NCBI GenBank assembly: GCA_001821395.1
Contig: MHLM01000012.1
Span: 1 to 64,000, forward strand
Length of the DNA stretch: 64,000 nt
Direction: 5' to 3'
Source: Candidatus Lloydbacteria bacterium RIFCSPHIGHO2_02_FULL_50_18
GTDB taxonomy: Bacteria > Patescibacteriota > Minisyncoccia > Phycocordibacterales > UBA6899
Shown: positions 5,549-43,434 of the stretch, piece by piece
Numbering within the stretch: position 1 is the stretch's first letter
How the letters are laid out: each line of letters opens with the position of its first letter
Program-made: the position numbers and the translations under genes
Notes under the pieces: model-generated
The model's input: the letters and a program-made list of their open reading frames with translations, nothing else
What the model was told of the DNA's origin: nothing
Databases searched by the model: none

Positions 5549-5562
5549 GCTGCAATTATAAC

Positions 5563-6750: not shown

Positions 6751-6753
6751 AGA

Positions 6754-10752: not shown

Positions 10753-10764
10753 GATTTTGGATAG

Positions 10765-22674: not shown

Positions 22675-24870
22675 CTATATCCCCGGTTTTGGCGTGGGGA
22701 CGAATCTTTTTGGTGTCGGACCGGTGTCATCGCCATGAGATTCACTCATCATCTTTGCATCTCGCTCGTTTGGCTTGATGAAATCCTTGTCGGCGCGCTT
22801 GATGGAGAGGTTGATGCGACCCTTATCATCGACTTCTTTGACGACGACGGGGACTTCCATTCCCTCCTTAACATAATCAGCGACGCGCTCGATACGGAAT
22901 GGGGCAATTTCAGAGACGTGAACGAGTCCTTCCGCGCTGTGCCCTATCTTTACAAAGGCACCAAAGTCCATGAGTCGCGTGACGACACCCTTGAACATTT
23001 CTCCTGCAACGTACTCGTGGGTCATTTCCGCAATAATATCGCGTGCCTTCTCCGCGGAGCCGCTCTTTCCGGTGCAGAACACTGTGCCATCATCTTCAAT
23101 ATCGATCTCCGCTCCTGTTTGCTCGCGGATCTCTTTTACTGTTTTTCCTCCGGAGCCGATTACCATCCCGATCTGGTCGGGCTTGATCTTGATGACCACG
23201 ATCTTCGGAGCAAAGGGAGAAATGTCCGCACGTGGTGCTGCAATTGCGGCCTTCATTGTCTCAAGAATAGTGAGGCGAGCGGCTTTCGCTTTTGCAAACG
23301 CTTCCGCGAGTATCGGTAGTGGAATTCCATTAACCTTTACATCCATTTGAATTGCAGTAACACCGTTCTTTGTGCCGGCAACCTTGAAATCCATATCGCC
23401 GTGATGATCCTCAGGTCCCTGGATATCAGTGAGTACCTTATACTTTGTCGGTGTTTCCATCATCAGTCCCGATGCGATGCCTGCGACCGGCTCCGTAATG
23501 GGCACGCCTGCATCCATGAGGGCCAACGTGGAACCGCAGACCGAGGCCATTGATGTCGAACCATTCGAGGCCATTGATTCAGAAACGATGCGGATGGTGT
23601 ACGGAAAGGCCTCCTTCGCAGGAAGTACCGGCAGGAGTGCCTTTTCGGCAAGCGCCCCGTGCCCGATCGCTCGGCGGTTCATTCCCCCCATGCGTCCTGT
23701 CTCACCCGAAGAAAATGGCGGAAAGTTGTAATGATGCAGGTAGCGTTTCTTCCCCTGCACCTCCATTCCTTCAATGATGAGTGAATCCTGCGGTCCGCCT
23801 AATGTGAGTACGGAAAGCACGTGTGTTCCTCCGCGATAAAAGACTCCCGATCCGTGAAGTACGGGCGAGATCCCTCCTGCCTCTGCAAGAAGCGGGCGTA
23901 CCTCATCGAATGAGCGGCCATCAGGGCGCTTGTTCTCGTTGATTGCCTTTTTGTGCAGGAGATCATTTACCTCGTCATCAAAATATTGTGCTGCAAGTTT
24001 GTCATTCATCCCCTCGACGGCTTTGACGCATGTCATCCACTCATCCATGAGTGCATATTCGCGTGTACGGCCGGCCTCTCCCCAGATTGTTGATTCAAAT
24101 TTTGGAGCGATCTTCTCTGTAAACAATGCCTTGATGTCTTCACCAACCTCGTCGAGCTCTATGATGCGTTTCGTTTTTCCTAGTTTTGCAATAATCGCTT
24201 CCTGAAACTTTTGTAGTTTCTCGATCTCAGCACTTGCATAGGTGAGTCCTTCCATGACGACATCTTCTGAGATCTGCTCTCCCCCCATCTCGATCATGTT
24301 GACGTTGCCGTCCTTGCCGCAGACGATAAGCTCGCAGTCACCTTCAATGATCTCTACATTTTCTTCGACACGAAATGACGGCATCGTGACCCATTTTCCG
24401 TTCTGTCTAGAAACGCGTACCGCAGAGACCGGCCCGCCGAACGGAATCTCGGAAACCGCAAGCGCGATCGACGCACCGTTCACCGCGAGTACGTCCGGCT
24501 CGTCTTTATCGATCGAAAGAACGGTGATGACGACTTGTACGTCGTATCGTATGCGTCCATCGAAAAGTGGGCGTATTGCACGGTCGATGATGCGACCGGA
24601 CAAAACCGCGACATCCGAGGGACGTCCCTCGCGGCGCATGTATTGGCTACCAAGGATCTTGCCTGCGGCATAAAAGCGCTCCTCATAATCCACCGTAAGC
24701 GGGAAAAAATCTCCTCCCTCACGCTTCTTATTCGACATCACCGCGGTCGCAAGGATAGTCGTATTCCCATATCGGATAAAGACCGAACCGTGGGCTTGGT
24801 TCGCAAGGTCATTGAACTCCGCGATAAGCTTCTTTCCCCCGATCTCGATCTCGAATGATTCTTTTTTCAT
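22675..24870 (-). CDS. pnp: polyribonucleotide nucleotidyltransferase (PNPase)
   Basis: 731 aa with two RNase PH domains, KH and S1 C-terminal domains (GEMFKGVVTRLMDFGAFVKIG) and N-terminus MKKESFEIEIGGKKL. Confidence 0.95.
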   Translation of the reverse strand: MKKESFEIEIGGKKLIAEFNDLANQAHGSVFIRYGNTTILATAVMSNKKREGGDFFPLTVDYEERFYAAGKILGSQYMRREGRPSDVAVLSGRIIDRAIRPLFDGRIRYDVQVVITVLSIDKDEPDVLAVNGASIALAVSEIPFGGPVSAVRVSRQNGKWVTMPSFRVEENVEIIEGDCELIVCGKDGNVNMIEMGGEQISEDVVMEGLTYASAEIEKLQKFQEAIIAKLGKTKRIIELDEVGEDIKALFTEKIAPKFESTIWGEAGRTREYALMDEWMTCVKAVEGMNDKLAAQYFDDEVNDLLHKKAINENKRPDGRSFDEVRPLLAEAGGISPVLHGSGVFYRGGTHVLSVLTLGGPQDSLIIEGMEVQGKKRYLHHYNFPPFSSGETGRMGGMNRRAIGHGALAEKALLPVLPAKEAFPYTIRIVSESMASNGSTSMASVCGSTLALMDAGVPITEPVAGIASGLMMETPTKYKVLTDIQGPEDHHGDMDFKVAGTKNGVTAIQMDVKVNGIPLPILAEAFAKAKAARLTILETMKAAIAAPRADISPFAPKIVVIKIKPDQIGMVIGSGGKTVKEIREQTGAEIDIEDDGTVFCTGKSGSAEKARDIIAEMTHEYVAGEMFKGVVTRLMDFGAFVKIGHSAEGLVHVSEIAPFRIERVADYVKEGMEVPVVVKEVDDKGRINLSIKRADKDFIKPNERDAKMMSESHGDDTGPTPKRFVPTPKPGI

Positions 24871-24982
24871 AACATGAATTTACGTTGTGGTGTCCAGATT
24901 CTCGCATTGAAAGAGTGCCTTCAATTCGATGATCCGGACGCCGCAGCGGCTGGTAATGGAGTCACTATAGCAAACGCAGATA

Positions 24983-25222
24983 AAAATAAAAGGTAATTAA
25001 ACCCTAGGGCACAAGCCCTGGACTCGCAGTGAGCTCGCAAAGCCTCGCGCGAGTCCAGGGCTTGTGCCGCCAGGATATCGAACCTTTTTAGCACTCCTCG
25101 GCACCACGGGGAGTACTTCCATTTTTCTAAAGCAGAATACTGCTAAGAAAAATTGGTCGCCCGGAAATGAAAAAGAAGACTTTTTTATTTCGCTCGCTCT
25201 ACGTCGGCAATAAAAGCGGGGC
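24983..25222. repeat. copy A of a 230-290 bp intergenic repeat element containing a ~20-bp perfect-stem hairpin; copy B is at 51613-51905 in inverted orientation
   Basis: GGCACAAGCCCTGGACTCGC...GCGAGTCCAGGGCTTGTGCC hairpin plus a shared ~150-nt flank (…CTCCTCGGCACCACGGGGAGTACTTCCATTTTTCTAAAGCAGAATACTGCTAAGAAAAATTGGTCGCCCGGAAATGAAAAAGAAGAC…). Confidence 0.6.
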
Positions 25223-25247
25223 AATGGCCACACCTTTTTCCAGATTC

Positions 25248-25847
25248 CTAAAGCGACACTGCGCGCCGGGGTCGCGGCTCATTTCCCTCCCTTCCGCTCC
25301 GTCCTCCTCCGCGTGGCACACTTCTGCGTTTTTCCTTGAATCCCAAGAGATATGCGCTCGGATCTCCGGAAAGATCAAAGAAGTCGTCGGCGGCATCGCG
25401 CAATTTTGATGAAGCAGACTTACCGAATGCAACGACTTCGACTTGGATGCCCATATTGATTTGAAGGTATTTTACAAGCGGTTCGAAATCGCCGTCTCCG
25501 GAGGCGATGATGATCGCATCAAGTTTCGGTGCAAGCGTGATTGCGTCGACTGCGAGGCCGACGTCCCAGTCACCCTTCTTAGCTCCACCCCAGAATTCCT
25601 GGAGTTCTTTCGATCGTGTTTCGATGCCAATCTTACCGAGTGCCTCGAAGAATGCCTGTTCCTCACCGGATTTTGTTGAGATGACATATGCCATTGCGCG
25701 AATAAGTTTTCTGCCCGCAACGGCATCTTCGAGAATGTTACTAAAATTCACTCGGGCATCATCATAAAGATTCTTTGCACTGTGATAGAGATTCTGCGCA
25801 TCAATAAAGACACCGACGCGCTGGTCTTTGTGTTTTGTGACTGACAT
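25248..25847 (-). CDS. NYN-domain (LabA-like) putative ribonuclease
   Basis: RVGVFIDAQNLYHSAKN ... IIIASGDGDFEPLV, typical NYN/LabA residues. It lies between rpsO and pnp. Confidence 0.65.
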   Translation of the reverse strand: MSVTKHKDQRVGVFIDAQNLYHSAKNLYDDARVNFSNILEDAVAGRKLIRAMAYVISTKSGEEQAFFEALGKIGIETRSKELQEFWGGAKKGDWDVGLAVDAITLAPKLDAIIIASGDGDFEPLVKYLQINMGIQVEVVAFGKSASSKLRDAADDFFDLSGDPSAYLLGFKEKRRSVPRGGGRSGREGNEPRPRRAVSL

Positions 25848-26070
25848 AAGTGTGGCGATTCGCGGATCTTGATGAATTTCTTCGCTGTCTTCACGTCAAG
25901 GTCCCTAAGAACTTACGGTGAGTAAGTCTGGAGAGCCCCGCTCGGCTCGACGCCTCGAACTTCATTCAAGATCTACAAAACGTTAGTTATAAAAAGTAAT
26001 CAAACGTTTATAAAAATGTGCGAACAGTAGATAGATTAAATAATGCGGTCTCGAAAATTCTCACACAAAA

Positions 26071-26103
26071 AATAATAATGCACGCTTGTCGTGCATTATT
26101 ATT
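26071..26103 (-). terminator. rho-independent terminator after rpsO
   Basis: AATAATAATGCACG-loop-CGTGCATTATTATT perfect stem followed by a T-run on the coding strand. Confidence 0.55.
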
Positions 26104-26367
26104 TTACTTGATTCCTAATTTCTTGACGAGTGAGTTGTACTTTGCCTCACTCTTCTTTTTTAAATATTTGAGGTGGGCACGGCGGTCAGAAACCATTTTG
26201 AGCAAACCGCGGCGTGAATGATTGTCCTTCTTGTTCTCCTTCAGGTGCGCTGCAAGCTCATTGATCTTTTGACTTAAAATAGCGATCTGAACCTCCGGAG
26301 AACCGGTATCGGTATCGTGACGCTGGGTTTTGGCCATAACGACCTGCTTTTTCTTTGCTGTTAACAT
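26104..26367 (-). CDS. rpsO: 30S ribosomal protein S15
   Basis: [59 protein letters not shown] matches the S15 consensus. Start trimmed to MLTAKKK. Confidence 0.85.
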
Positions 26368-26415
26368 GGGAGACATCCTAGCACGAAAGAAAAAAAAACG
26401 CAACCTTGATCGCTG

Positions 26416-26646
26416 CTAAAATTTTTCGTCAAGAAATCGCTGAAGTTCTTGGTCGGGGGTAAGACTGACATGTGAATATTCGATACTATCGTCTGCAGCA
26501 AGCATTTGTTTTGTCTCGTCATTTATCGCTCTGATGTCGACGGGGGTGCTGCCCCCCTCCTCTTCTTCGCTAAAAATATCCCCATCTTTGATAAAGATGA
26601 TCTGCGTGCCGAGGCTTTGTTTTCCCGTGTAACTTGGGATTGGCAT
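26416..26646 (-). CDS. small acidic hypothetical protein
   Basis: 76-aa ORF, Glu/Asp-rich, no motif recognised. Confidence 0.4.
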   Translation of the reverse strand: MPIPSYTGKQSLGTQIIFIKDGDIFSEEEEGGSTPVDIRAINDETKQMLAADDSIEYSHVSLTPDQELQRFLDEKF

Positions 26647-26657
26647 AGTGGTTTGTA

Positions 26658-26978
26658 CTATTCTGCGTAGTGAGATGACCTGAAGGCTTCAAGCGCATCA
26701 GGGCTTAAGTTTGTCGCGTTCAGGACGTCCTCGATATTTTCCACCTCAATCTCTTCCGGTAGTTGCTCGAGTCCATCTTCGGCGGAAGCATATGCTCTTC
26801 GGAGCATAGTACTAATATCTGCTTCGTTTTCTTCTCCTCCTTCGAACACTGGTGCTTCGTTTGGGTTAAACATAGATTCTGTTGCTCTCATCGTATCACT
26901 CGTGTTTGTTTTTTTCAACAAGCAAAGATATGCACAACCTTTCTTTTTCATTATGTCTAACCCCATCTTCTGCGCCAA
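26658..26978 (-). CDS. small acidic hypothetical protein (start uncertain, possibly internal Met MRATES)
   Basis: 106-aa ORF with an acidic C-terminal half (EEIEVENIEDVLN). Confidence 0.4.
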   Translation of the reverse strand: MAQKMGLDIMKKKGCAYLCLLKKTNTSDTMRATESMFNPNEAPVFEGGEENEADISTMLRRAYASAEDGLEQLPEEIEVENIEDVLNATNLSPDALEAFRSSHYAE

Positions 26979-27006
26979 AGATCGATTCGCTTGCTACAAT
27001 GAATAA

Positions 27007-27948
27007 ATGGACTTACATGAGTGGAAAAAACATTTTCTTGAATACACGGAAATAGAAAAAGGAAGAAGTATTCATACGGTAGAAAATTATGATCGCTATT
27101 TGACGCGTTTTCTTGAATATTCGAAGCTGACGCAGCCGTCGGATATTACCTATGACGTCGTCCGTGAATACCGTCTTTGGCTCAATAGGCAGCTCGCAAC
27201 GGAGTCGCGTCGGGGGGTTCCGGAAACTACATTAAAAAAGCGGACACAGAACTATTATCTGATCGCTCTTCGCGCATTCCTGAAATATTTGATGCGTCAG
27301 GGTGCTGAAAATATCATGTCGCCGGAGAAGATCGAGCTCGCAAAAGTTTCAGAGCGTGAATTAGACCTGATATCCACACAGGATCTTGATCGTCTGCTCA
27401 TGGCCCCACGGGGTGATACGCTTGTTGCGCTTCGCGATACAGCGATACTGGAATTATTATTCTCCACCGGTCTGCGTGTATCTGAATTGTGCGGGCTGCC
27501 ACGCGACTTGGATCTTTCCCGCGATGAGTTTTCCGTGCGGGGAAAGGGTGAAAAGGTGCGTGTCGTATTTTTGTCCGAGACGGCGAAAGCAGCACTGAAG
27601 GCTTATCTTCACAGAAGGACAGATGTTGATGACGCCCTTTTTGTGCAGGTGGGCCGCGGCGGAGAACGATCCCAAATCAAAAAAGAAGGTTCGTTAAGGC
27701 TTACTTCCCGTTCCGTGGAACGCCTTGTGAAACACTATGCAATAAAGTCAGGAATCTCAAAAAAGGTCACCCCTCATGTTATTCGTCACAGTTTTGCCAC
27801 TGACCTATTGGAAAATGGGGCCGACCTTCGTTCCGTGCAGGCGTTATTGGGGCATGCAAATATTGCCACCACGCAGATATACACACATGTGACTGATAGC
27901 AAACTTCGTGAAGTGCATAAGCTGTTTCACGATAAGCGCAAAAGGTGA
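27007..27948 (+). CDS. tyrosine site-specific recombinase, XerC/XerD family
   Basis: C-terminal catalytic block HVIRHSFATDLLENGADLRSVQALLGHANIATTQIYTHV (R..H..R..Y). The N-terminal SAM-like domain has the conserved W/Y residues. Confidence 0.9.
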   Translation: MDLHEWKKHFLEYTEIEKGRSIHTVENYDRYLTRFLEYSKLTQPSDITYDVVREYRLWLNRQLATESRRGVPETTLKKRTQNYYLIALRAFLKYLMRQGAENIMSPEKIELAKVSERELDLISTQDLDRLLMAPRGDTLVALRDTAILELLFSTGLRVSELCGLPRDLDLSRDEFSVRGKGEKVRVVFLSETAKAALKAYLHRRTDVDDALFVQVGRGGERSQIKKEGSLRLTSRSVERLVKHYAIKSGISKKVTPHVIRHSFATDLLENGADLRSVQALLGHANIATTQIYTHVTDSKLREVHKLFHDKRKR

Positions 27949-28055
27949 TCGTTCCGTGAAACGTAATGCTTTTGTTATTCGTGTAACAATTTAGTTTTTT
28001 ATAGGCGTTCTACTGGTGATAGGCGGGAATATTTCTTTTGCGATATAATCATGAA

Positions 28056-28823
28056 ATGTATTACGTTTCATGGAATGTGAATGGACTTCGTGCAGCAGCA
28101 AAGAAGGGATTTTTGGATTGGCTGTATGAAACGCAGCCCGATGTACTCGGGTTGCAGGAAACAAAAGTAGAAGCGGAGCAGTTGCCTGAAGAAGTGCGCA
28201 GTCCAAAGGGGTATTTTGCTTACTTCACGCATTCAAAAGGGCGGAAGGGTTACAGTGGTGTCGCCTTGTACTCAAGGACAAAGCCCGACAAGGTAGAATA
28301 CGGTATAGGAATTAAGCGCTTTGACGACGAAGGACGGATCATTATCGGACATTATGGAGATCTTGTCCTTTTGAATGTCTATTTCCCGAACGGAGGTGGG
28401 GGGCCAGAGCGCCTCAAGTATAAACTCGATTTTTATGATGCTTTCTTGCTGCATATAGAAAAGCTGCGGAAACAAGGGAAAAAGGTCATGGTCTGCGGGG
28501 ACGTCAATACGGCACATGAGGAGATTGACCTGGCGCGACCGAAAGAGAATGAGAACAACACGGGATTCCTTCCGGAAGAACGCGCGTGGATCGACGAGCT
28601 TGTGTATCACGGCTATGTTGATACGTTTCGTTATTTTCATCCGAACAAAGAAGGTGCGTATAGTTTTTGGGATATGAAGACACATGCTCGAGAGCGCAAT
28701 GTTGGATGGAGGATCGATTATTTTTTTGTTGTACCTGATCTTGTCAGCAAACTTAAGTCGGCAGGTATCTCGGACCAGACGCCTGGCTCCGATCACTGTC
28801 CAGTATGGGTGGTTCTTAAATAA
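28056..28823 (+). CDS. xth: exodeoxyribonuclease III (AP endonuclease, ExoIII/APE1 family)
   Basis: MYYVSWNVNGLRA, LQETK, the GDVNTAHEEIDL region, and the C-terminal SDHCPVWVVLK. Confidence 0.85.
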   Translation: MYYVSWNVNGLRAAAKKGFLDWLYETQPDVLGLQETKVEAEQLPEEVRSPKGYFAYFTHSKGRKGYSGVALYSRTKPDKVEYGIGIKRFDDEGRIIIGHYGDLVLLNVYFPNGGGGPERLKYKLDFYDAFLLHIEKLRKQGKKVMVCGDVNTAHEEIDLARPKENENNTGFLPEERAWIDELVYHGYVDTFRYFHPNKEGAYSFWDMKTHARERNVGWRIDYFFVVPDLVSKLKSAGISDQTPGSDHCPVWVVLK

Positions 28824-28879
28824 TAAATAGAATAAAAAATCCGCACCAGAGTATGGTGCGGAGAAGTCTATGGTGGGAC

Positions 28880-29656
28880 TCATTGCTGGATCACGGGAAT
28901 GTAGTTTTTCGCCCAATGCGAGGTGTTGTACACACCGCGAGCAAGCGGAAGGGTGCGTTGAATCAACTCATAAACAGGTTTTGGTAGTGTGGCTCCAAAC
29001 ATGTCCCATAGTGTGATGATCGCAGTGGCAACCGCGAGCCGTTGTGTTTGCGGAAGCACCCTCTTTTCGGCGGAACTTGTCGTTCGTAACAGTTCTTCCG
29101 GCGAAAGCACGCGACGATCCCCGGTTTCTCCATTGTGTGCACGGTATGCACTGAGCCGATCATCAACGGAAGCAACGAAGTATGCATCAGCGCAGACCTT
29201 ACCGTTCATCATCTTGACCTCACTCGATCGATCTTCCGTTATTGTCCGGAGGCCGACGAGCTTGACTTCGTTAGGGTTAAGGTCGATACCTAATTCTTCC
29301 TTCACTTCACGGAGCAGGCAGTCGATTACGGACTCTTCTGCATCGACATCGCCTTCTTCACGAAATTCGCCGGAGTAGGGTTCGAGCCGCCCCCCGCCGA
29401 GCGTGTTATCACAGACGCCCGAACGCAGGTCTTCGCTGCAGACAATGCCATACTCGTCGCCAAGCGGCCCTCCGGGGAGTTCTCGTCCGATGAGGGTTAT
29501 GCGCGTCGAGGTGACGGAGTATTCCGTTGGGAGACCTTGGTCGTTGACTACCACGACAGAGTCTGAGGGGATTGCGCAGGCTTCCAGGCTGTTCGGATTG
29601 AAGAGGCGAGCGATTTGGTAACCGTCTCGCAAGAGAAAAGCGGTGTTCTTGTCCAC
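28880..29656 (-). CDS. NUDIX hydrolase
   Basis: Nudix box GGGRLEPYSGEFREEGDVDAEESVIDCLLREVKEELGI. Confidence 0.75.
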   Translation of the reverse strand: MDKNTAFLLRDGYQIARLFNPNSLEACAIPSDSVVVVNDQGLPTEYSVTSTRITLIGRELPGGPLGDEYGIVCSEDLRSGVCDNTLGGGRLEPYSGEFREEGDVDAEESVIDCLLREVKEELGIDLNPNEVKLVGLRTITEDRSSEVKMMNGKVCADAYFVASVDDRLSAYRAHNGETGDRRVLSPEELLRTTSSAEKRVLPQTQRLAVATAIITLWDMFGATLPKPVYELIQRTLPLARGVYNTSHWAKNYIPVIQQ

Positions 29657-29851
29657 GACGTACTCCTAAAAAAGTTGATGGTTGATGGCTCCAGAATTTG
29701 TAAGGTGCCTACTCTTCATACTACACAGATTGTGCGATTTGTCAATACATTGCCTGCGTGTTGAGGTCTGAAACACAAAGACCATAAAGTCCTGCGCTGC
29801 GAGTTGAGGTCGTGACGGCAGTGACGTTCTTTGTGAGCGCGCAAAGATCGC

Positions 29852-31339
29852 CTACTTCACTCCATATTTCTTGCGTATGGCACTCACCTCACCTTTTTCC
29901 TCCGCTTCTTTTTTCTCCTTACCCGCTTCTCCGAGTTGCTCAAGCTCCCTTCTCGGAAGCGTGTAGAGTGCTATCGCTCGTTGTTTAAGATAGTCAGCCG
30001 TGTTCTTTTCGGGATTATCAAGCACTTCATTGAAGAGTGCATGAAGTATCCATCCTATTTCCCGCCCCGGCTTCAAGTTGGCTGCGCTCATTATTCCCGC
30101 ACCATCGATTTTCAGCATACCCACCGATACCGGTGCACGCATTGCTTCCTCGATCATTGAATGATATTTGCGTAGTCGATAGGGGGTTTCTTTCGGACGC
30201 CCCATTCCGATACGGTCGCAGGCACGCACGTTCATGAGATCCCACACAAGTTCGGGTCCCACATGCGCAACGATGCGTCGTACTGCAGAGAGCGTAATCT
30301 TCTCAATATCGGAAAAAAATAAATGATAACGCACTAGCGTCGAGACGTCATGAATGAATTGCTTCGGAAAACGCAAGCGTTCAAGAATTTTTGCCGCCAT
30401 GCGCCCTCCGACGACATCGTGCCCGTAGAACGTCCAATCTTTCTTTTCGTCCGACCACTTACGCGTGTGGGGCTTCCCAACATCATGGAGTAACGCCGCG
30501 ATGCGCACGTGGAGCGGCCATCCCCTTTCTTTTGCATGCTGCAGAGCGCGCAGGTTATGTTCCCACACTTCATAGATGTGGTCGCCATTTTGCTCGCATC
30601 CAATGCCTGCCTCGAGTTCCGGTGCGATATATTTGAGTACCCCCGTTCTATTGAGCAGAACGATACCCTCCATGGGGCGATCCGACATGATGATCTTGAT
30701 GAACTCGTCACGAATGCGTTCCCCCGCGATGTGTTCAAGTCGGTGCGTAAATTTTACGACCGCATCCATGGTCTCTTTCTCGATGGCAAAGCCGAGCTCT
30801 GCGCCAAAGCGCACCGCGCGCAGTATGCGCAACGCGTCCTCGTGAAAACGATCTTCCGGCGCACCTACGGTTTTTATCAAATGGCGTTCGATGTCTTCTT
30901 CCCCTCCGTAGGGATCGATGATCATTCCTTGTGAAACATTGTACGCGATAGCATTCATGGTGAAATCGCGACGCTGTAGATCATCAGTAAGACTGCCGGA
31001 GAATGCAATCTCATCAGGATGGCGAAAGTTTGAATAGGCGCTTTCTTTGCGATATGGGGTCACTTCGACGATGCGCATGCTTCCCCGCTCCGCATCGTCT
31101 TCTGCGATGTCTTCATTGACGACGCCCACTGTTCCGTAATCATTCTCATAAAATGTTTTTGGGAAAAGTGCGATGATCTCTTCCGGCTTCGCGTTCGTTG
31201 TGACATCCCAATCCTTTGGCTTGACCCCTCGGTAAAGATCACGAACGCAACCACCTACGAGATATGCTTCATAGCCGGCTGCTTCGAGCGTTTTATTGAC
31301 CTGTGATATTTCGGGTGGAATAGTAAAGTGTTTCTGCAT
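29852..31339 (-). CDS. cca: CCA-adding tRNA nucleotidyltransferase with HD domain
   Basis: LVGGCVRDLYRGVKPKDWDVTT polymerase-beta-like head. HD motif LLHDVGKP. 495 aa. Confidence 0.85.
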   Translation of the reverse strand: MQKHFTIPPEISQVNKTLEAAGYEAYLVGGCVRDLYRGVKPKDWDVTTNAKPEEIIALFPKTFYENDYGTVGVVNEDIAEDDAERGSMRIVEVTPYRKESAYSNFRHPDEIAFSGSLTDDLQRRDFTMNAIAYNVSQGMIIDPYGGEEDIERHLIKTVGAPEDRFHEDALRILRAVRFGAELGFAIEKETMDAVVKFTHRLEHIAGERIRDEFIKIIMSDRPMEGIVLLNRTGVLKYIAPELEAGIGCEQNGDHIYEVWEHNLRALQHAKERGWPLHVRIAALLHDVGKPHTRKWSDEKKDWTFYGHDVVGGRMAAKILERLRFPKQFIHDVSTLVRYHLFFSDIEKITLSAVRRIVAHVGPELVWDLMNVRACDRIGMGRPKETPYRLRKYHSMIEEAMRAPVSVGMLKIDGAGIMSAANLKPGREIGWILHALFNEVLDNPEKNTADYLKQRAIALYTLPRRELEQLGEAGKEKKEAEEKGEVSAIRKKYGVK

Positions 31340-31389: not shown

Positions 31390-31503
31390 GAAATATTCGC
31401 CAGGAATTTCGACCCCTACTGGGTCAGTACCTCATTCCCATTTTTCAGATTAAGAAATCTTCAAAAACATGGTAATGGGCTTCGAATCCTGTCGAAGCTG
31501 AAG
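31390..31503 (-). repeat. tRNA-3'-associated structured element (Arg copy) plus degenerate duplicate of the tRNA-Arg 3' end
   Basis: Read on the minus strand: GGATTCGAAGCCC...TTTTTGAAGATTTCTTAATCTGAAAAATGGGAATGAGGTACTGACCCAGTAGGGGTCGAAATTCCTGGCG. It is homologous to the elements at 32048-32150 and 35191-35302. Confidence 0.5.
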
Positions 31504-31543
31504 CAGTTCAGCTTCTCGGGAGCACAACTCGCTTCGCTCTTTG

Positions 31544-31615
31544 TGCTCCCGCCAGGATTCGAACCTGGAATAACTGCTTCGAAGGCAGTCGTGATATCCA
31601 TTTCACTACGAGAGC
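31544..31615 (-). tRNA. tRNA-Arg (anticodon TCG)
   Basis: Manual cloverleaf: acceptor GCTCTCG/CGGGAGC, D-stem GTGA/TCAC, anticodon stem ACTGC/GCAGT with loop CTTCGAA, T-arm CCAGG-TTCGAAT-CCTGG. Confidence 0.85.
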
Positions 31616-31731
31616 GTACTTTGTATTAAAGCAGATGATCAATGATAAAGCACGGCCAATAGAGATGAAGCGCTTGAAGGATGTATCCCTGTTTGCCATT
31701 TTCGTGTGAATTCGTTAGTATTGGTCCACAA

Positions 31732-31805
31732 GCGGGTATGGTTTAGTGGTAGAATACGTCCTTGCCAAGGATGAGACGGGAGTTCGATTCTCCCTACCCG
31801 CACCA
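31732..31805 (+). tRNA. tRNA-Gly (anticodon GCC), CCA encoded
   Basis: Acceptor GCGGGTA/TACCCGC, anticodon loop TTGCCAA, T-arm GGGAG-TTCGATT-CTCCC, 3' ACCA. Confidence 0.9.
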
Positions 31806-31828
31806 GGGTTGAGTGAAGCGGAAGTTAG

Positions 31829-31888
31829 CAAATCGTGAAATAGCAAAAATAACGAGATATCTCGTTATTTTTGCTATTTCACGATTTG
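31829..31888. repeat. 60-bp perfect palindrome immediately downstream of tRNA-Gly
   Basis: CAAATCGTGAAATAGCAAAAATAACGAGAT|ATCTCGTTATTTTTGCTATTTCACGATTTG has exact dyad symmetry. Confidence 0.7.
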
Positions 31889-32047
31889 TAACGATTTCCA
31901 TTTCCGAAAATCGCCGTGCGAGGAAAACTCTGCTTACCCGCATTAATTTTGCACTGTGCATGGTTTAAGGAAAGAAATCGTTCCGCCTCACTCAACTCTG
32001 TTGTTTCATATGCAAGCCTGTTTGGAAGTGTTTTGCCCCACTTCCGT

Positions 32048-32150
32048 GGGAGAATCGAAGCCTTTTCCCTTATTTTTGAAGGATTCATATCCTGAAAAAA
32101 TGGGAAATGGGCACTGAAACTGTAAGTTTCGATTCTCCCTACCCGCACTA
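32048..32150 (+). repeat. tRNA-3'-associated structured element (Gly copy) followed by a duplicate of the tRNA-Gly 3' end (att-like)
   Basis: GGGAGAATCGAAGCC...TTTTTGAAGGATTCATATCCTGAAAAAATGGGAAATGGGCACTGAAACTGTAAG, then TTTCGATTCTCCCTACCCGCACTA (compare the tRNA 3' end TTCGATTCTCCCTACCCGCACCA). Confidence 0.55.
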
Positions 32151-32310
32151 GGAACGAGCGTGATAAAAGGCCCTTCATAGGGCTTTTTATCACCGAGTGA
32201 CGACGTGCGGGAGGCTTTGCCTACGCGCACTAGGATGAACAACGAGCGTGATAAAAGGCCCTTCATAGGGCTTTTTATCACCGAGTGACGACGTGCGGGA
32301 GGCTTTGCCT
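32144..32310. repeat. tandem direct repeat (2 units of about 85 bp), each unit carrying a bidirectional terminator-like hairpin
   Basis: The unit CGCACTAGGA(TGAAC)AACGAGCGTGATAAAAGGCCCTTCATAGGGCTTTTTATCACCGAGTGACGACGTGCGGGAGGCTTTGCCTAC occurs twice. The hairpin is AAAAGGCCC-TTCAT-AGGGCTTTTT. Confidence 0.6.
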
Positions 32311-32496
32311 ACTCAGCAGTCATTTTTGATCAACTTGAGCTTTTGGTGTGCTGCTCACAAAGAATATACGTTTTTTATGAAATACAGGTAAATGCAAAGC
32401 ATTTTCTCCTTAAAAAATTAAACGTCGGCAATAAAATATTTTTTCTGAAATTCGTCAATAATTCCTAAAATATGTGATTTTAAGCATTTTTTGAAC

Positions 32497-34946: not shown

Positions 34947-34983
34947 CGAAGTATATCGGGGCGTGGTGTAATGGCTAACATGT
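34947..34983 (+). pseudogene. tRNA-Pro 5'-half pseudo-copy (degenerate duplicate upstream of the intact gene)
   Basis: CGGGGCGTGGTGTAATGGCTAACATGTCTGGTTTT is near-identical to the 5' half of tRNA-Pro at 35047. The anticodon loop is disrupted (TTTTCAGGATAGAGA) and the T-arm is missing. Confidence 0.5.
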
Positions 34984-35046
34984 CTGGTTTTCAGGATAGA
35001 GACCAGATGACAAGAGACAGCGTGACGTAGTGAGGAAGAAGTATAT

Positions 35047-35119
35047 CGGGGCGTGGTGTAACGGCTAACATGTCTGGTTTGGGACCAGATGACTCCGGGT
35101 TCGAATCCCGGCGCCCCGA
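35047..35119 (+). tRNA. tRNA-Pro (anticodon TGG)
   Basis: Acceptor CGGGGCG/CGCCCCG, anticodon stem TCTGG/CCAGA with loop TTTGGGA, T-arm CCGGG-TTCGAAT-CCCGG. Confidence 0.9.
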
Positions 35120-35163
35120 CTAAATAAAGAAAAGACCTTCAAGGAGGTCTTTTCTTTATTTAG
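35120..35163 (+). terminator. long AT-rich hairpin immediately 3' of tRNA-Pro
   Basis: CTAAATAAAGAAAAGACC-loop-GGTCTTTTCTTTATTTAG perfect 18-bp inverted repeat. Confidence 0.45.
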
Positions 35164-35190
35164 TCGAAGGCGCGAGGAGCACAGCTCCGA

Positions 35191-35302
35191 GAGGGATTCG
35201 AAGCCCTTCTCCCATATTTATGAAGGATTCTTATCCTGAGTAAATGGGAAAGGGGTACTGACGCAGTAGGCGTCGAAATTCCCGGCGCCCCGACTAAATA
35301 AA
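35191..35302 (+). repeat. tRNA-3'-associated structured element (Pro copy) followed by an exact duplicate of the tRNA-Pro 3' end plus 11 nt (att-like)
   Basis: GAGGGATTCGAAGCCCTTCTCCCATATTTATGAAGGATTCTTATCCTGAGTAAATGGGAAAGGGGTACTGACGCAGTAGGCG, then TCGAAATTCCCGGCGCCCCGACTAAATAAA. Confidence 0.55.
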
Positions 35303-35476
35303 AAAACTGCCTTTTGGCGGTTTTTTTATTAAATCTTCAAGATTGAAAATCACCTGCGGCGGTAAGGGTAGATCTCAGTTTTCAATGACTGAGAAGGCGT
35401 CATCGATAAAAAGTGTTTCACGTGGAACACCTGCGAGCTCGCAATGAATAACTTCTCACGATAGAATGAGTTTCTT

Positions 35477-36058
35477 GTGAAGAATCCCGAATACGAAGAA
35501 GGTGGACATGATGAAAAAAAAGACCTATTCCTTTTTGAGTTGGACGGGGATCTTTACGCTGTACCCGTTGAACTCGTCGATCGAGTAATGAAAATACCTC
35601 CGATCACTCCGATCCCCAATGCGCCGGCGGCAATTGTTGGTATCTTCCACTTGCGCGGAAAGGTCGTTTTGACCCTCGACCTCTCAAGTCGTATGGGTAT
35701 TTCCAGAATGAAGCCCTTAAGTCAAAACTTTCTTTTTGTCGTGCGGTATAAAAATGATCAGTTCGCCATTTTGATCGATACACCTAAGGTCATTGTACAC
35801 ATCCCAGCGAGCGAAATTCATCGTCCCGACTCCATTCTTACGGCCCGATTATCACCGCAATATGTCCAGGGAACCTTCATGTTTCAGGAGGTAACAAAAG
35901 TGAAAGTCCCTAATCATTCGATCTTCATCGAGCATATTGGTGGGGTTGACCGGAGGCCTGAAGAAATTCCACCATCACTTCGACCGGTACTCCTCCTTGA
36001 CCTTGAGCGAGTCCTTGACCAGGAGGATCTTCAGCACATGTTTATTTCACAGGAGTAA
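35477..36058 (+). CDS. cheW: chemotaxis coupling protein CheW
   Basis: CheW-like domain LFLFELDGDLYAVPVELVDRVMKIPPITPIPNAPAAIVGIFHLRGKVVLTLDL. Confidence 0.8.
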   Translation: MKNPEYEEGGHDEKKDLFLFELDGDLYAVPVELVDRVMKIPPITPIPNAPAAIVGIFHLRGKVVLTLDLSSRMGISRMKPLSQNFLFVVRYKNDQFAILIDTPKVIVHIPASEIHRPDSILTARLSPQYVQGTFMFQEVTKVKVPNHSIFIEHIGGVDRRPEEIPPSLRPVLLLDLERVLDQEDLQHMFISQE

Positions 36059-36079
36059 AGTCTATGGTACAATTTTAGT

Positions 36080-36442
36080 ATGGCAAAGGATATAAAAATA
36101 CTTCTTGTTGATGACTCAGCTTTTATGCGTAAGGTATTGCGTGACATCTTTGAAAGTGCCGGATATACGAATTTCATAGAGGCGGGAAATGGAACAGAAG
36201 CGATCCAAAAATTCAGAACAGAGAAGCCCGATTTTATCTTTCTTGATATCATCATGCCTGACGTGAACGGTATGGATGTACTTCGTGAGATCGGGAGCGA
36301 AGCGAAGGTCATCGTCGTATCGGCGGTTGGACAAAAGGATGTGATCGAGCAGGCAAAAACACTTGGTGCACTCGATTACATCGTAAAGCCTTTTGATCGT
36401 GATCAGGTGCTCGAAAAGGCCCAGCGGCATTTCGGTCAGTAA
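36080..36442 (+). CDS. cheY: chemotaxis response regulator CheY
   Basis: 120-aa single REC domain KILLVDDSAFMRKVL...DFIFLDIIMPDVNGMDVL...KP with the phospho-acceptor Asp. Confidence 0.85.
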   Translation: MAKDIKILLVDDSAFMRKVLRDIFESAGYTNFIEAGNGTEAIQKFRTEKPDFIFLDIIMPDVNGMDVLREIGSEAKVIVVSAVGQKDVIEQAKTLGALDYIVKPFDRDQVLEKAQRHFGQ

Positions 36443-36456
36443 GTAGCCCGACACGC

Positions 36457-37566
36457 TTGGTCAAATGTTTCATGAATAGTCAACCAACCGAAAAGATCCG
36501 TGTACTTATTGCAGATGATTCTTTTTTTATACGCACCTATCTTCAGGAGGTATTGAAAGCAAGTGAATCGATCGAAGTCGTTGGGCTTGCTTCATCGGGA
36601 ATCGAAGTAGTTGAGTTGGCACGTAAATTAAAACCCCATGTGATCACGATGGATTATCACATGCCGGGAAAAAATGGAATTGAAGCAACCGCAGAGATTA
36701 TGCGTGATGATCACCCGCTTCCGGCAATCATCATGCTTTCTGCTTTCGAGGGGGATGATGGCGAACATGTTCGAAAGACCCTTTTGTCCACCGGTGCCCA
36801 TGTGATCGAAAAACCGTCGGGAGAAGTGTCTCTTGATATAGAAAAGATTGCACGCACTATCGTACAACGGATCGAGGAGGTCGGGTGGACCGAAGTACGC
36901 ATGCGACACTCCTTTGCCCGCATGAAACACACTAGGGAACGAAGCCTAAATGGGCAGGATCGCACACTGCCATTTTCGGGGGTTGTCGTGATCGGTGCGT
37001 CTACCGGTGGGCCATCCTTGGTTGAAGGTTTGATCAAGTCGTTTGATCAGTATCACGGAATTTCGATCGTGATAGTTCAGCACATGTCTGCATATTTTAC
37101 TTCGCTGTTTGCTGAGCGGCTCGGACACGTTACCTCATTCCGTGTTTATGAAGCAAAGAGCGGAGACGTTCTTCTTCCGAACGATGCCCTCGTTGTCCCC
37201 GGTGGTTCTTTTTTGTTACCTACTTCGCTACCGGGTTCCCCGATGTGCAGCTTTGATATTATCGAAAGTGAAACTCATGCACCGGAGGCGCAGATCGACA
37301 ATTCGATGCGCGCGATAGCCGCTTGTTACCAGGGACCAATCGCCGGCGTATTACTTTCCGGAATGGGAAATGACGGAGCCGTCGGACTGCACGCACTGCG
37401 ATTGCGTGGAGGACTTTGTCTTGCGCAGGATCCGGAAACAGCACCGGTGCGTTCTATGCCGGCGCATGCGATTGATAGCGGTGAGGCAGTCGGAGTGCGG
37501 ATAGAGGATATCCCCGAACGTATCATGAGTCATTTTCGTCGACCATCACCGTCACGGCTTGCGTGA
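36457..37566 (+). CDS. cheB: chemotaxis protein-glutamate methylesterase CheB (REC + CheB_methylest)
   Basis: N-terminal REC (IRVLIADDSFFIR). C-terminal VVVIGASTGGPSLVEGLI, HMSAYFT and a GMGNDGAVG-like catalytic region. Confidence 0.85.
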   Translation: MVKCFMNSQPTEKIRVLIADDSFFIRTYLQEVLKASESIEVVGLASSGIEVVELARKLKPHVITMDYHMPGKNGIEATAEIMRDDHPLPAIIMLSAFEGDDGEHVRKTLLSTGAHVIEKPSGEVSLDIEKIARTIVQRIEEVGWTEVRMRHSFARMKHTRERSLNGQDRTLPFSGVVVIGASTGGPSLVEGLIKSFDQYHGISIVIVQHMSAYFTSLFAERLGHVTSFRVYEAKSGDVLLPNDALVVPGGSFLLPTSLPGSPMCSFDIIESETHAPEAQIDNSMRAIAACYQGPIAGVLLSGMGNDGAVGLHALRLRGGLCLAQDPETAPVRSMPAHAIDSGEAVGVRIEDIPERIMSHFRRPSPSRLA

Positions 37567-39250
37567 TATAATCAACCATATGCCGTTGAACATGAATAAG
37601 TATAAGGATCTCTTCTGCGCGGAAGCAGAGGAGCAGCTTGCAATACTCTCTCGTTTATTGCTTGTGCTTGAGAAATCAACAAACCACATGGAATACCATG
37701 AGGAGTTAATGCGCAGCGCACACACCATCAAGGGTGCCGCTGCGACAATGGGGTATGCTTCAATGGCAGAACTTGCTCATGCGGTTGAAGATATTTTTCA
37801 TGCAGCCGAGCGGGGTGCCCTTGTGGTTGATACACGGATCATTACACTATTGCTCTCAGCGATCGACCTCATGACGCATTCACTCGCCTCGATCAAGAGT
37901 AGTGACGTTGAACTTCCCAGTAAGGAAGTTGTTGATAAATTGAAAAAAATTCTTGAAGAAAATGCCGGTGTACAGACCGTTGTTCCGCAAGAAAAAACCG
38001 GTACTGATGTTCAGCAATTGCATATCGTCACTCCGGATACCATCAAGGTTAGTGTCGAAAAACTCGATACATTAATGGGGCTATTTGAGGAAATGTTGAT
38101 GCTCAGACTGAAGGCAAATTCAATGATCGAGCCTGCTGTGGAATTTGTTCGGACGACGACTGACCCTGTATTGAAGCAGCAATTATTCTTCATTGCCGAG
38201 CTCGAGGCATTGTTTGCAGAACTTGCGCGGCTCATGACTGAGCATCAAGACGCTCTTCTTGCTATTCGCCTCGTTCCCCTTGAACAGATCTTCGGCCAGT
38301 TCCCTCGTATGGTGAGGGATCTGTCGGTGCGAGAAGAAAAAGCGATCGAATTTTTTGTTGAAGGTGGAGATATCGCCTTAGACCGTACCGTGATCGAGGG
38401 CCTTGGCGGTGCACTAGCGCATCTTCTTCGCAATGCGGTCGACCACGGGATCGTTTCACGTGGAACAATATCTCTTTCGGCGGTAAGGGAAAAGGGACGC
38501 GTACGGATCTTTGTGGAGGATTCGGGCGCCGGGATCGATTATGGGCGGGTCAAAGAGGTGGCAACGGCTCAAGGGGTAGGCACGAGTGAAGAGATCGCAC
38601 TTATGGGAAACGAACAGCTCGCAGAATTATTGTTTCATCAAAATATGTCGACCAACAAAGTGGTGACGGATATTTCGGGAAGAGGAGTTGGTCTTGCTGC
38701 GGTGCGCGGGTTTGCTGAGGATGTCGGAGGACGCGTTGAAGTCATTTCTCCCATTCCGGAAATAGGGAAGGGGACCCGCTTTGTTCTTGATCTTCCGATC
38801 TCTCTTGCAACAGTGCGCGTGCTCGTCGTGCAAGCACGAGGGTACACATTTGCGATACCTTTCGATCATGTCATTAAAACACTTCACTTTGAAACGCGGG
38901 AGGTCGGTGACGCGGCGCATCAGGAAACACTTTTTCTCGACGGGACATTGTTGCCGCTGATGCATCTCGATAAAATTCTCAAACTATCATACGGTTCCGC
39001 TCCATCTCCGGAACATTCTCGAACCGCGGTGTTGATCCGAACGGGAGAGAAAACATTTCTTCTCGAAGTAGATGCGTGCACGGGTGAACAAGACCTATTG
39101 ATCAAATCGCTTCCTCCGGTTCTCCGTAATAATAAGGGATTTTCAGGCTCAGCGCTTCTCCCGGACGGACGAACAATATTATTACTCGATGGCCATGGTT
39201 TACTCATACAAGCAATAGACGATATACTGAACACCCAATCATTATCTTAA
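37559..39250 (+). CDS. cheA: chemotaxis histidine kinase CheA
   Basis: HPt motif HTIKGAAATMGY, HATPase_c HLLRNAVDHGI ... GRGVGLAAV, and a C-terminal CheW-like domain. Confidence 0.85.
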   Translation: MRDIINHMPLNMNKYKDLFCAEAEEQLAILSRLLLVLEKSTNHMEYHEELMRSAHTIKGAAATMGYASMAELAHAVEDIFHAAERGALVVDTRIITLLLSAIDLMTHSLASIKSSDVELPSKEVVDKLKKILEENAGVQTVVPQEKTGTDVQQLHIVTPDTIKVSVEKLDTLMGLFEEMLMLRLKANSMIEPAVEFVRTTTDPVLKQQLFFIAELEALFAELARLMTEHQDALLAIRLVPLEQIFGQFPRMVRDLSVREEKAIEFFVEGGDIALDRTVIEGLGGALAHLLRNAVDHGIVSRGTISLSAVREKGRVRIFVEDSGAGIDYGRVKEVATAQGVGTSEEIALMGNEQLAELLFHQNMSTNKVVTDISGRGVGLAAVRGFAEDVGGRVEVISPIPEIGKGTRFVLDLPISLATVRVLVVQARGYTFAIPFDHVIKTLHFETREVGDAAHQETLFLDGTLLPLMHLDKILKLSYGSAPSPEHSRTAVLIRTGEKTFLLEVDACTGEQDLLIKSLPPVLRNNKGFSGSALLPDGRTILLLDGHGLLIQAIDDILNTQSLS

Positions 39251-39255
39251 GTATT

Positions 39256-43088: not shown

Positions 43089-43159
43089 GCGGGATTAGTT
43101 TAGTGGCAAAATAGGAGTTTTCCAAACTCTTGTCGCCGGTTCGATTCCGGCATCCCGCA
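43089..43159 (+). tRNA. tRNA-Gly (anticodon TCC)
   Basis: Acceptor GCGGGAT/ATCCCGC, anticodon stem GGAGT/ACTCT with loop TTTCCAA, T-arm GCCGG-TTCGATT-CCGGC. Confidence 0.75.
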
Positions 43160-43434
43160 CAGAAATGAGATTCAAAGAGCGCATTACTGCGCTCTTTGTA
43201 TTTTTGTGAACCACAGCGATGTTTCGCCAGCGGGTGAAACTGCAGGGTGGGGCCACGAATACTTACATTTTTTGTGCGAGTAGCTATAAAAAATCTAGTG
43301 ATTCGTGATCTGGGATACGAAACACTACCGATAGATGGTTGTTTTGTATGTGCGCGGAAGGCTGCCAGAATGACTTGGTCAGGGCTAAATCGGAAGGTTC
43401 TTCGACAACGACCGACTAATTTTTTCTTGTAACA

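Follow-up and report, generated by a model that had tools for sequence, protein, structure and literature searches.

Short sequence elements that stand immediately 3' of tRNA genes and end in a second copy of the tRNA 3' end raise the question of what they are: attachment-site scars of lost islands, structured RNAs of the host, or small insertion elements in their own right. Elements of this kind, termed units here, occur in a 64,000-nucleotide (nt) stretch of Candidatus Lloydbacteria bacterium RIFCSPHIGHO2_02_FULL_50_18 (contig MHLM01000012.1, positions 1 to 64,000), referred to below as the window, and in related genomes of these small groundwater bacteria (Parcubacteria), in which an element of ~140-200 nt follows many of the tRNA genes. 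The units have a common anatomy, carry arms complementary to their own tRNA, are under constraint to fold, and have been inserted and turned over with displacement of the original tRNA 3' end. We give roughly even odds to the reading that they are mostly non-autonomous insertion elements that fold as a single strand and home to tRNA 3' ends.

Four tRNA genes were identified in the window with ARAGORN and Rfam, namely Arg-TCG, Gly-GCC, Pro-TGG and Gly-TCC (the last at 43089-43160, plus strand), and homologous elements lie directly 3' of the first three, each on the strand of its tRNA. The invariant core AAATGGGAANNNGGNACTGA occurs exactly three times in the window (31424-31443, minus strand; 32098-32117 and 35242-35261, plus strand), compared with 0.03 occurrences expected by chance, and the three copies can be aligned over ~110 nt. 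The presence of AAATGGGAANNNGGNACTGA at all three sites confirms an initial annotation made from the sequence alone, which described homologous elements after tRNA-Arg and tRNA-Gly and a third at tRNA-Pro. Its proposal that an antisense T-arm motif at the 5' end pairs with a sense copy at the 3' end was also borne out in the window copies. The direct repeat of ~25 nt that it assigned to the tRNA 3' end is exact at tRNA-Gly (21 nt, 31783-31803 = 32128-32148) and at tRNA-Pro (23 nt, 35106-35128 = 35280-35302, extending 9 nt beyond the tRNA end), but only partial at tRNA-Arg (TCGAA + AT + TCCTGGCG, divergent thereafter). In addition, our analysis revealed an anti-acceptor copy, a hairpin that splits the antisense arm, a spacer element at tRNA-Gly, and decayed units farther downstream.

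Anatomy of the units and complementarity to their tRNAs

Read directly from the sequences of the window and of related loci (numbered with the prefix L), the units share one order of parts from the tRNA outward. An intrinsic terminator hairpin flanked by A/T, or in some units a loop of ~15 nt, is followed by an anti-acceptor arm, whose sequence exactly reverse-complements the 3' strand of the acceptor stem, the discriminator and another 1-3 bases (about tRNA positions 75 to 66). Hairpin P0, with 5-9 base pairs (bp), usually a CUGC-type loop and the flanks A...GU/GA, stands exactly at the 65/66 boundary between acceptor and T-stem, and the anti-T arm, the reverse complement of the T-stem 3' strand and T-loop (65 to 54), comes after it. 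The next part is the core, which in type A consists of P2, a rod of ~52 nt with a tandem G.A motif, and then UACUGA. P3, a hairpin of 4-5 bp with an N-GUA-N loop, leads into the sense copy, in which tRNA positions 55-59 are usually separated by a 2-nt bulge (AU) from positions 60 to 75 and the bases that follow. P1 is formed by pairing of this copy with the anti-T arm. The units have the same orientation as their tRNA in every case, and no open reading frame (ORF) was found inside any unit. The Arg unit of the window, on the minus strand, is composed as follows.

31543-31615, minus: tRNA-Arg(TCG), target and left boundary of the Arg unit (ARAGORN; Rfam tRNA, 67.7 bits)
31527-31541, minus: connector loop of 15 nt in this terminator-less copy
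31517-31526, minus: anti-acceptor arm TGTGCTCCCG, antisense to the tRNA 3' strand CGGGAGCACA
31494-31515, minus: P0 hairpin of 9 bp with a CUGC loop, at the acceptor/T-stem boundary of the antisense arm
31481-31491, minus: anti-T arm CAGGATTCGAA, which is antisense to the T-loop and the 3' strand of the T-stem and forms the 5' strand of P1
31429-31480, minus: P2, long hairpin, type A core, with the tandem G.A motif
31411-31425, minus: P3 hairpin GACCC-AGUAG-GGGUC
31398-31412, minus: partial sense copy of T-loop and T-stem 3' strand (TCGAA+AT+TCCTGGCG), the 3' strand of P1, with a decayed acceptor part

The Gly unit lies on the plus strand, separated from its tRNA by a different segment.

31732-31805, plus: tRNA-Gly(GCC), target of the Gly unit (ARAGORN, Rfam)
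31806-31998, plus: different segment of ~190 nt between tRNA-Gly and the unit, bounded by inverted repeats
31999-32023, plus: right half of the unit's own terminator, a remnant, and decayed anti-acceptor arm (by comparison with unit 1 of L010)
32024-32045, plus: P0 hairpin
32047-32059, plus: anti-T arm TGGGAGAATCGAA
32060-32112, plus: P2, type A core of a Gly-specific sub-lineage
32116-32130, plus: P3 hairpin GAAAC-UGUAA-GUUUC
32128-32148, plus: exact 21-nt sense copy (DR2) of tRNA-Gly positions 54-74
32149-32320, plus: two tandem repeats of ~88 nt past the unit
32205-32214 and 32293-32302, plus: anti-acceptor-like GTGCGGGAGG within these repeats
32220-32235, plus: acceptor copy within these repeats

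The segment at 31806-31998 starts right after the CCA of tRNA-Gly, is bounded by the inverted repeats GGTTGAGTGAAGCGGAAGT / CGTTCCGCCTCACTCAAC, and contains a perfect palindrome of 57 nt and repeats part of the tRNA-Gly acceptor strand once more. In L010 and L037 the segment is also conserved, in each case behind a tRNA-Gly end or a copy of one. The copy at 32128-32148 is read as the displaced original 3' end of tRNA-Gly. Each of the ~88-nt repeats contains a terminator GATAAAAGGCCCTTCATAGGGCTTTTTATC, the anti-acceptor-like sequence and an acceptor-strand copy, and they look like stripped-down older units.

The Pro unit, also on the plus strand, has a terminator of its own.

35047-35120, plus: tRNA-Pro(TGG), target of the Pro unit (ARAGORN, Rfam)
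35120-35163, plus: the unit's own bidirectional terminator T1, unlike the native terminator
35164-35174, plus: anti-acceptor arm, imperfect, TCGAAGGCGCG
35176-35188, plus: short P0 hairpin GGAGC-ACA-GCTCC
35191-35202, plus: anti-T arm GAGGGATTCGAA
35203-35256, plus: P2, type A core of the consensus type
35260-35274, plus: P3 hairpin GACGC-AGUAG-GCGUC
35273-35302, plus: sense copy, TCGAA+AT+exact 23-nt repeat (35280-35302) of the tRNA-Pro 3' end with 9 nt of trailer
35300-35327, plus: native tRNA-Pro terminator, displaced with the old 3' end (alignment to the L037 terminator)
35341-35372, plus: type B core (GATTGAAAATCACC TGCGGCGGTAAGGG) left from an older unit, past the native terminator (compared with the type B units of L035 and L039)

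The type B core remnant at 35341-35372 indicates that the tRNA-Pro site had an earlier occupant. Upstream of tRNA-Pro, at 34957-35020 (plus strand), there is also a duplicate of the 5' two-thirds of this tRNA with 9 nt of its upstream flank (GAAGTATAT), which has an anticodon loop expanded to 15 nt, lacks a T-arm and is absent from related loci.

The arms are specific to the tRNA beside which they stand. Over 19 arm positions there are 1.6 mismatches to the cognate tRNA versus 5.0 to other tRNAs, the low non-cognate values being those of units that other genomes carry at the same type of tRNA. At the G3:U70 and G49:U65 pairs of tRNA-Ala the arm carries A and not G, so the arm is a complement of the tRNA 3' strand rather than a copy of the 5' strand; the same positions rule out the unit as a degenerate tRNA gene. 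Where the downstream sense copy has decayed (window Arg, L003 Val, L012 Ser), the antisense arm still matches the functional tRNA.

Folding constraint and covariation

The covariance model and wider search that the initial annotation proposed as a check yielded covariation-supported hairpins and many copies in related genomes. The model was built from 13 copies, and 27 copies were then aligned. Paired cells in these 27 reached 92.2%, compared with 71.7% in shuffles and 37-50% when the partners were slid, in an alignment that was fitted to the model and is thus biased toward the proposed structure. Both sides had changed in 37 of the 43 pairs, all hairpins covary, and the covariation score (0.472 vs 0.153) was reached by 0 of 500 shuffles. 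A separate MAFFT/RNAalifold run gave 22 compensated pairs. The covariation of P1 is explained in part by the tRNA origin of both its strands, but that of P0, P2 and P3 is not. In the Leu-GAG copy of L003 and the Cys copy of L020 the sequence of P2 is entirely different and the pairing is the same. Because the hairpins covary, our results indicate that the units fold as single-stranded nucleic acid.

Compared with shuffled sequences, the window copies gave folding z-scores of -3.0 to -5.0 as RNA and -4.9 to -7.5 as single-stranded DNA, with the same fold. The tRNA-sense strand was the better folder in 15 of 18 copies, by a mean of 3.5 kcal/mol, and the tandem G.A in P2 is invariant and strand-specific. 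G.U and A.C were found in 19 and 22 of about 810 cells, respectively; both are about equally rare, which is unusual for an RNA. These two near-equal counts favour neither strand. A good intrinsic terminator lies between tRNA and unit at most loci, and no promoter-like sites were predicted at the units.

Several known motifs were considered and rejected. UGAAG...CUGA in P2 is not a K-turn or box C/D, as the helix runs straight through the tandem G.A without a 3-nt bulge. A mini-ORF of 7 amino acids (aa) in P2 (ATG AAG GAT TCT TAT CCT GAG TAA) was discarded, since its peptide is altered by compensatory stem changes and the frame is missing in other copies. With permissive filters, Rfam returned only tRNAs and chance miRNA-type matches for the window region and two related loci, and nothing at E<=1 over the units. 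Readings as hammerhead, hairpin, twister or another known self-cleaving ribozyme, and as group II, HEARO, T-box or Y-RNA-like RNAs, were discarded.

Turnover, distribution and core types at related loci

One record of insertion is the tRNA-Gly locus of L010, which equals the window locus (tRNA, ~190-nt segment, unit) plus one extra unit of 183 nt. This extra unit lies between the T-stem 5' strand and the 21-nt repeat, and the inserted piece consists of tRNA positions 55-75, terminator, arms, P0, core and P3. At tRNA-Pro, the sequence past the window unit (repeat + AAAAAAACTGCCTTTTGGCGGTTTTTTT) has its orthologue in the 3' end and terminator of tRNA-Pro in L037, so that the downstream "duplicate" is the original tRNA-Pro end pushed aside. 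The terminator that now adjoins the window tRNA-Pro is unrelated to the native terminator of the L037 type. The suggestion of the initial annotation that insertion at tRNA 3' ends left a displaced copy of the tRNA end is thus supported, and the units are miniature and gene-less.

Eight syntenic loci were gathered through homologues of the neighbouring CCA-adding enzyme (cca identity 68-95%). The trio of Pro, Gly and Arg tRNAs is kept in 6 of the 8 (L035-L037, L039-L041), while L034 has no tRNA genes and L038 has tRNA-Arg only. Occupancy of the three tRNAs is as follows.

tRNA-Arg, filled: type A in the window; type B in L039 and L035; type C with a small ORF in L036 and L037
tRNA-Arg, no unit: L038 (17 nt from tRNA to cca), L040 and L041
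tRNA-Gly, filled: window, L035, L037 and L041
tRNA-Gly, empty: L036, L039 and L040
tRNA-Pro: type A and then a type B remnant in the window; order B-A-A in L035; none in L040 and L041

The same three tRNAs thus hold type A, type B, type C, other cores or nothing, and L040 has no unit at any of them. Comparison with relatives for empty sites, another check named in the initial annotation, gave filled and empty sites at identical tRNAs: the tRNA-Gly genes of the empty loci L036 and L040 are identical to that of the window. The type B unit at tRNA-Arg of L035 is accompanied by a remnant (P3 and repeat) of an older type A unit, and in arrays the intact unit adjoins the tRNA and decayed units lie farther out. 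The extra unit of L010, the displaced Pro terminator, the patchy occupancy and the terminators together argue for repeated insertion at the tRNA end and against an indispensable host RNA. A separate observation concerns orientation. In L035, L036 and L040, tRNA-Arg and/or tRNA-Gly and their units are inverted relative to cca in comparison with 31390-31810 of the window, which suggests recombination between oppositely oriented units.

Outside the window, pattern scans of genomes and metagenomes used the type A motif, and types B and C are known only through synteny. Among genomes, with one per species, there were 10 true matches, all in Patescibacteria (Parcubacteria group, Paceibacterota, Lloydbacteria), and 6 chance matches within genes of unrelated organisms. 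Additional copies came from the metagenome scan, but the viral contigs scanned gave chance matches only, which speaks against phage-borne parent elements. With the covariance model, full-length copies were found solely beside tRNA genes (27 at E<=1e-9 in 17 sources), often with several copies in one locus of 8-13 kb. More than 30 further copies at >=14 tRNA types are present in other Parcubacteria/Paceibacteria. The host tRNAs are Pro, Val, Ala, Gly (GCC, CCC), Ser, Arg (TCG, GCG), Trp, Gln, Leu (TAG, TAA, GAG), Cys, Met and Thr, and some tRNAs have no unit. The closest named relatives of the CCA-adding enzyme of the window are from Parcubacteria GW2011_GWA2_47_7 (83%) and Candidatus Lloydbacteria (77%). 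Full-text literature searches returned no published description of such elements.

Arms and P0 are common to types A, B and C, and the sense copy occupies the same position in all three, but the cores themselves are entirely different. P0 with its flanks A...GU/GA is the most constant part across the three types, P3 with its GUA loop is common to types A and B, and P2 is hypervariable and tolerates insertions. A type C core without recognisable arms or ORF is present in the window at 43206-43310 (plus strand), downstream of tRNA-Gly(TCC), with the motif GTGAACCACAGCGATGTTTC ... GAAAC.GC.GGTGGGG.C ... TAGTGATTCGTGA and no Rfam match. In L042, type C cores at two tRNA-Met genes and at tRNA-Thr are flanked by a proper P0/anti-T arm on one side and a sense copy on the other, and the Thr copy has a perfect 20-nt repeat. 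As a side observation, a small element (..CGACCAAGAAAATAATGAGCG...GAAGTACTCATTGTGGTG..) is nested in the P2 of type A, always after AAATGGG (L035, ~2080-2180, minus strand; L015, ~521-560, plus strand), and its GACCAAG end is similar to the 3' end of the type C core.

An ORF of ~110 aa lies no more than ~70 nt past the type C unit in three loci, between tRNA-Arg and cca or after tRNA-Met.

L036, 5640-5963: ~110-aa ORF
L037, 5646-5969: ~110-aa ORF
L042, 2501-2833: ~110-aa ORF

The roughly 125 members of its family all come from uncultured bacteria, and the few that are named by source belong to the candidate phyla Pacebacteria, Microgenomates and Yonathbacteria. No significant Pfam domain was found in the ORF (best, HNH_5, E 0.089, below threshold). 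The invariant residues are CxxC...EH..N...CCxxCN, and PHROGs gave HNH / endonuclease VII families at E 5e-6 to 1e-3. The AlphaFold model (predicted local distance difference test, pLDDT, 91) had its best PDB fold matches among HNH domains, that of type II-C Cas9 first (E about 0.009, template modelling score, TM, about 0.5). This HNH ORF is the only lead toward a putative partner enzyme.

Candidate mechanisms and relation to known systems

If the units are insertion elements that fold as a single strand, a unit of ~150-185 nt would supply a replacement tRNA 3' end, usually its own terminator, the arms, P0, core and P3, and its insertion would push the original tRNA 3' end and native terminator downstream, where they would form the "duplicate". 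Each unit lineage would be dedicated to one tRNA, since, with the element supplying the new 3' end, only insertion at the cognate tRNA would leave a working gene. The mobile or recombining form is probably single-stranded, most likely DNA, in which the sense and antisense arms may fold into a branched hairpin that mimics the double-stranded target, with the AU bulge and P0 as possible extrahelical marks and P2 as a variable tip. A trans-encoded enzyme would then join the folded unit to the tRNA gene.

Several points weigh against this proposal. No excised form, circle junction or recombinase was seen, and the Pfam search of 50 window ORFs identified a Xer-like recombinase, the CCA-adding enzyme, PNPase, RNase Y and a NYN protein but no transposase, reverse transcriptase, HUH or HNH protein. 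The HNH ORF is absent from the window and is also present away from tRNAs (L044, L045). Presence and absence of units could also arise by deletion between direct repeats, or by uptake of DNA and subsequent homologous exchange. Between genomes and between different tRNAs, type A cores are 90-97% identical, whereas arms, P0 and terminators differ. The tRNAs are less conserved than this core (tRNA-Pro of the window and of L002 are ~85% identical, and the anticodon stem differs throughout). This uniformity may reflect either very strong sequence constraint, exchange of cores between lineages, or rewriting of the arms. The assignment of strand and of RNA or DNA draws chiefly on folding energies and on the tandem G.A, which is specific to one strand, and units with no preceding terminator (window Arg, L012, L039) would be co-transcribed with their tRNA.

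A sharper variant of this proposal, though on the unlikely side, is guide-directed homing, in which the split antisense arm would pair with the sense strand of the tRNA gene. P0 would protrude at 65/66 as the third arm of a three-way junction, the small HNH nuclease would cut there or nearby, and the unit would be installed by repair from an element-bearing copy or by direct joining. The complementarity of the arms is indeed specific to tRNA positions 54-75 and leaves out the trailer, the terminator stem and the acceptor stem are set apart by internal loops, and P0 with its flanks is the part most constant across core types. Since the self-pairing partner usually has a 2-nt bulge and often a decayed acceptor part, the arm pairs better with the real tRNA sequence than with the sense copy of its own unit. 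The HNH ORF directly follows type C units at 3 loci, and its best structural matches are the HNH domains of Cas9, which cut the guide-paired strand. However, with E about 0.01 and TM about 0.5 these fold matches are weak, and they are generic for HNH; the ORF is missing from the window and from most unit-bearing loci and occurs with no tRNA or unit nearby. In addition, the intact tRNA beside each unit keeps the supposed target, so that self-cutting would have to be prevented, and we know of no biochemical precedent for a guided HNH protein of 110 aa. The full version of this variant, in which the units are non-autonomous members of a guide-directed homing system with a split arm of ~21 nt, a three-way junction and cutting by a Cas9-HNH-like nuclease of ~110 aa, is in our judgement unlikely. 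If it were true, any tRNA could be targeted by changing the arms alone.

The initial annotation raised a structured RNA as an alternative. Such an RNA, located in the tRNA 3' trailer and serving the host, for instance by masking or presenting the tRNA 3' half in processing, acting as an acceptor/T-minihelix decoy, or giving rise to a trailer-derived small RNA (sRNA), is less likely, and we regard it as rather improbable. The strong covariation, the invariant loop and junction nucleotides and a tandem G.A typical of RNA motifs would fit it, as would the tRNA-like topology (acceptor-like stem, side hairpin, T-like stem), an orientation that is always that of the tRNA, the better folding of the tRNA-sense strand and the co-transcription expected of the terminator-less units. 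Yet a strong intrinsic terminator precedes most units, which lack a promoter of their own, and close relatives with identical tRNA-Gly or tRNA-Pro have no unit or an unrelated core. The extra units decay, G.U is not preferred over A.C, and no Rfam family matched.

The initial annotation favoured insertion by a tyrosine integrase, and scars of classical integrase islands or prophages, with attachment (att) sites and an arm retained after loss of the cargo, were considered. A direct repeat from the tRNA T-loop to the 3' end is the classical footprint of such events, the T-loop is a known crossover sublocation of integrases, and a tyrosine recombinase gene lies 3.4 kb away. However, no link of the units to a tyrosine integrase was found. 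This gene (27007-27948), the only Phage_integrase gene in the window and outside the units, is an Xer-like housekeeping gene, syntenic with rpsO and pnp in all relatives, whether units are present or not. No integrase, cargo or parent element was found beside any of the >30 copies, and no copies were found in viral contigs. The idea that the units are remnant arms of larger islands was not supported either, as the entire inserted unit is ~150-185 nt, and 183 nt in the filled/empty comparison. Double-stranded att arms would not be expected to show the compensatory changes seen in three hairpins or an antisense arm that fits the respective tRNA, and both disfavour the att reading. We consider an origin as island scars quite improbable.

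Growth of palindromes by template switching at tRNA terminators, with tandem duplication and unequal crossing-over but no mobility, could account for the long inverted repeat of tRNA end, terminator and antisense arm and for the tandem partial units, but it is scarcely credible and has been largely disproved by the cores that unrelated tRNAs have in common. Homologues of the core, P0 and P3 are found in many genomes and next to >=14 different tRNAs, relatives can have different core types at the same tRNA, and the palindromes are interrupted between the terminator and acceptor stems with P0 at one fixed internal position. For the last two reasons, an origin of the arms by snap-back copying at the terminator was rejected as well: the palindromes are broken, and the place of P0 is fixed.

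The insertion-element reading can be compared with several known systems. Like elements mobilized by tRNA-targeting tyrosine integrases, the units use a site from the tRNA T-loop to the 3' end, supply a replacement 3' end, leave a displaced repeat and stack downstream. They differ in their size of 150-185 nt, the absence of integrase or cargo, the hairpin-split antisense copy of the target and the covarying hairpins, and one unit family serves >=14 tRNAs. In integron attC and CTX-phage attP sites, a folded single strand recreates a double-stranded recombination site. The likeness of the units to these is one of design only: a single-strand hairpin, extrahelical bases, a variable tip and structure conserved over sequence. 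Decayed units farther from the tRNA also resemble integron arrays and are consistent with entry beside a fixed site. Unlike attC, the units have no R''/R' (RYYYAAC/GTTRRRY) or dif-like consensus, and their arms are tRNA-derived and differ for each tRNA; unlike in an integron, the fixed site would be a tRNA gene, and no IntI, attI or Pc platform was found in the window.

Small size, lack of genes, repetition, hairpin formation, intergenic location and an enzyme encoded elsewhere are shared with miniature inverted-repeat transposable elements (MITEs), repetitive extragenic palindromes and bacterial interspersed mosaic elements (REP/BIME), and the palindromic elements of IS200/IS605. The inverted arms of the units, however, vary from copy to copy as copies of the local target, and the repeat is 21-28 nt and not 2-10 nt or none as in MITEs. 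The units are strictly at tRNA 3' ends, and in contrast to IS200/IS605 they have long tRNA-derived repeats and no conserved short boundary target, and no Y1 transposase is present in the window. A target-complementary stretch beside a structured scaffold is also found in the exon- and intron-binding sites (EBS/IBS) of group II introns, the bridge (seek) RNA of IS110/IS1111 and the omega RNA of IscB/TnpB, some members of these being associated with an HNH nuclease as well. Unlike these, the units showed no Rfam match, the window has no reverse transcriptase, DEDD recombinase, RuvC or intron domains, and the guide of 21 nt is interrupted by a hairpin and has a further pairing partner in cis, the sense copy. 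Finally, the units share the trailer location and the mimicry of the coaxial acceptor/T-arm helix with tRNA 3' external transcribed spacer sRNAs and tRNA-like structures, but they are usually behind a terminator, patchy in close relatives and exchangeable in their core. Read as site-specific insertion elements of tRNA genes, the units lack a defining feature of every family compared, and there is a realistic chance that their mechanism is categorically new.

If mobile, the units would be the smallest known elements homing to tRNA genes and the first in which the choice of target is written as an internal antisense copy, and they would indicate that the role of a sequence-specific integrase can be taken over by folding of a single strand, by base pairing or by both. 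If the arms guide the ~110-aa HNH nuclease, it would be a very compact programmable nuclease. For the Candidate Phyla Radiation, the units also provide a concrete system for seeking a new enzyme of recombination or nicking, and they explain part of the odd intergenic content of these very small genomes. Repeats that flank tRNAs can confuse the annotation of tRNA and att sites and drive local inversions.

Several other features of the window may be mentioned. Enzymes acting on RNA ends are encoded near the tRNAs (22675-31339 and 44961-46490), including PNPase, a NYN-domain protein (25248-25847), a NUDIX protein, an EEP nuclease and RNase Y, and the gene of the CCA-adding enzyme (29852-31339) lies directly downstream of the Arg unit. 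As this arrangement is syntenic in relatives, these enzymes are probably unrelated to the units. Large ORFs with no Pfam match surround a TraG-like P-loop ATPase (3096-4895) at 129-11763, and a complete chemotaxis operon (CheW, CheY-like, CheB, CheA, CheC/X, CheD) is present in this Parcubacterium at 35477-40406.

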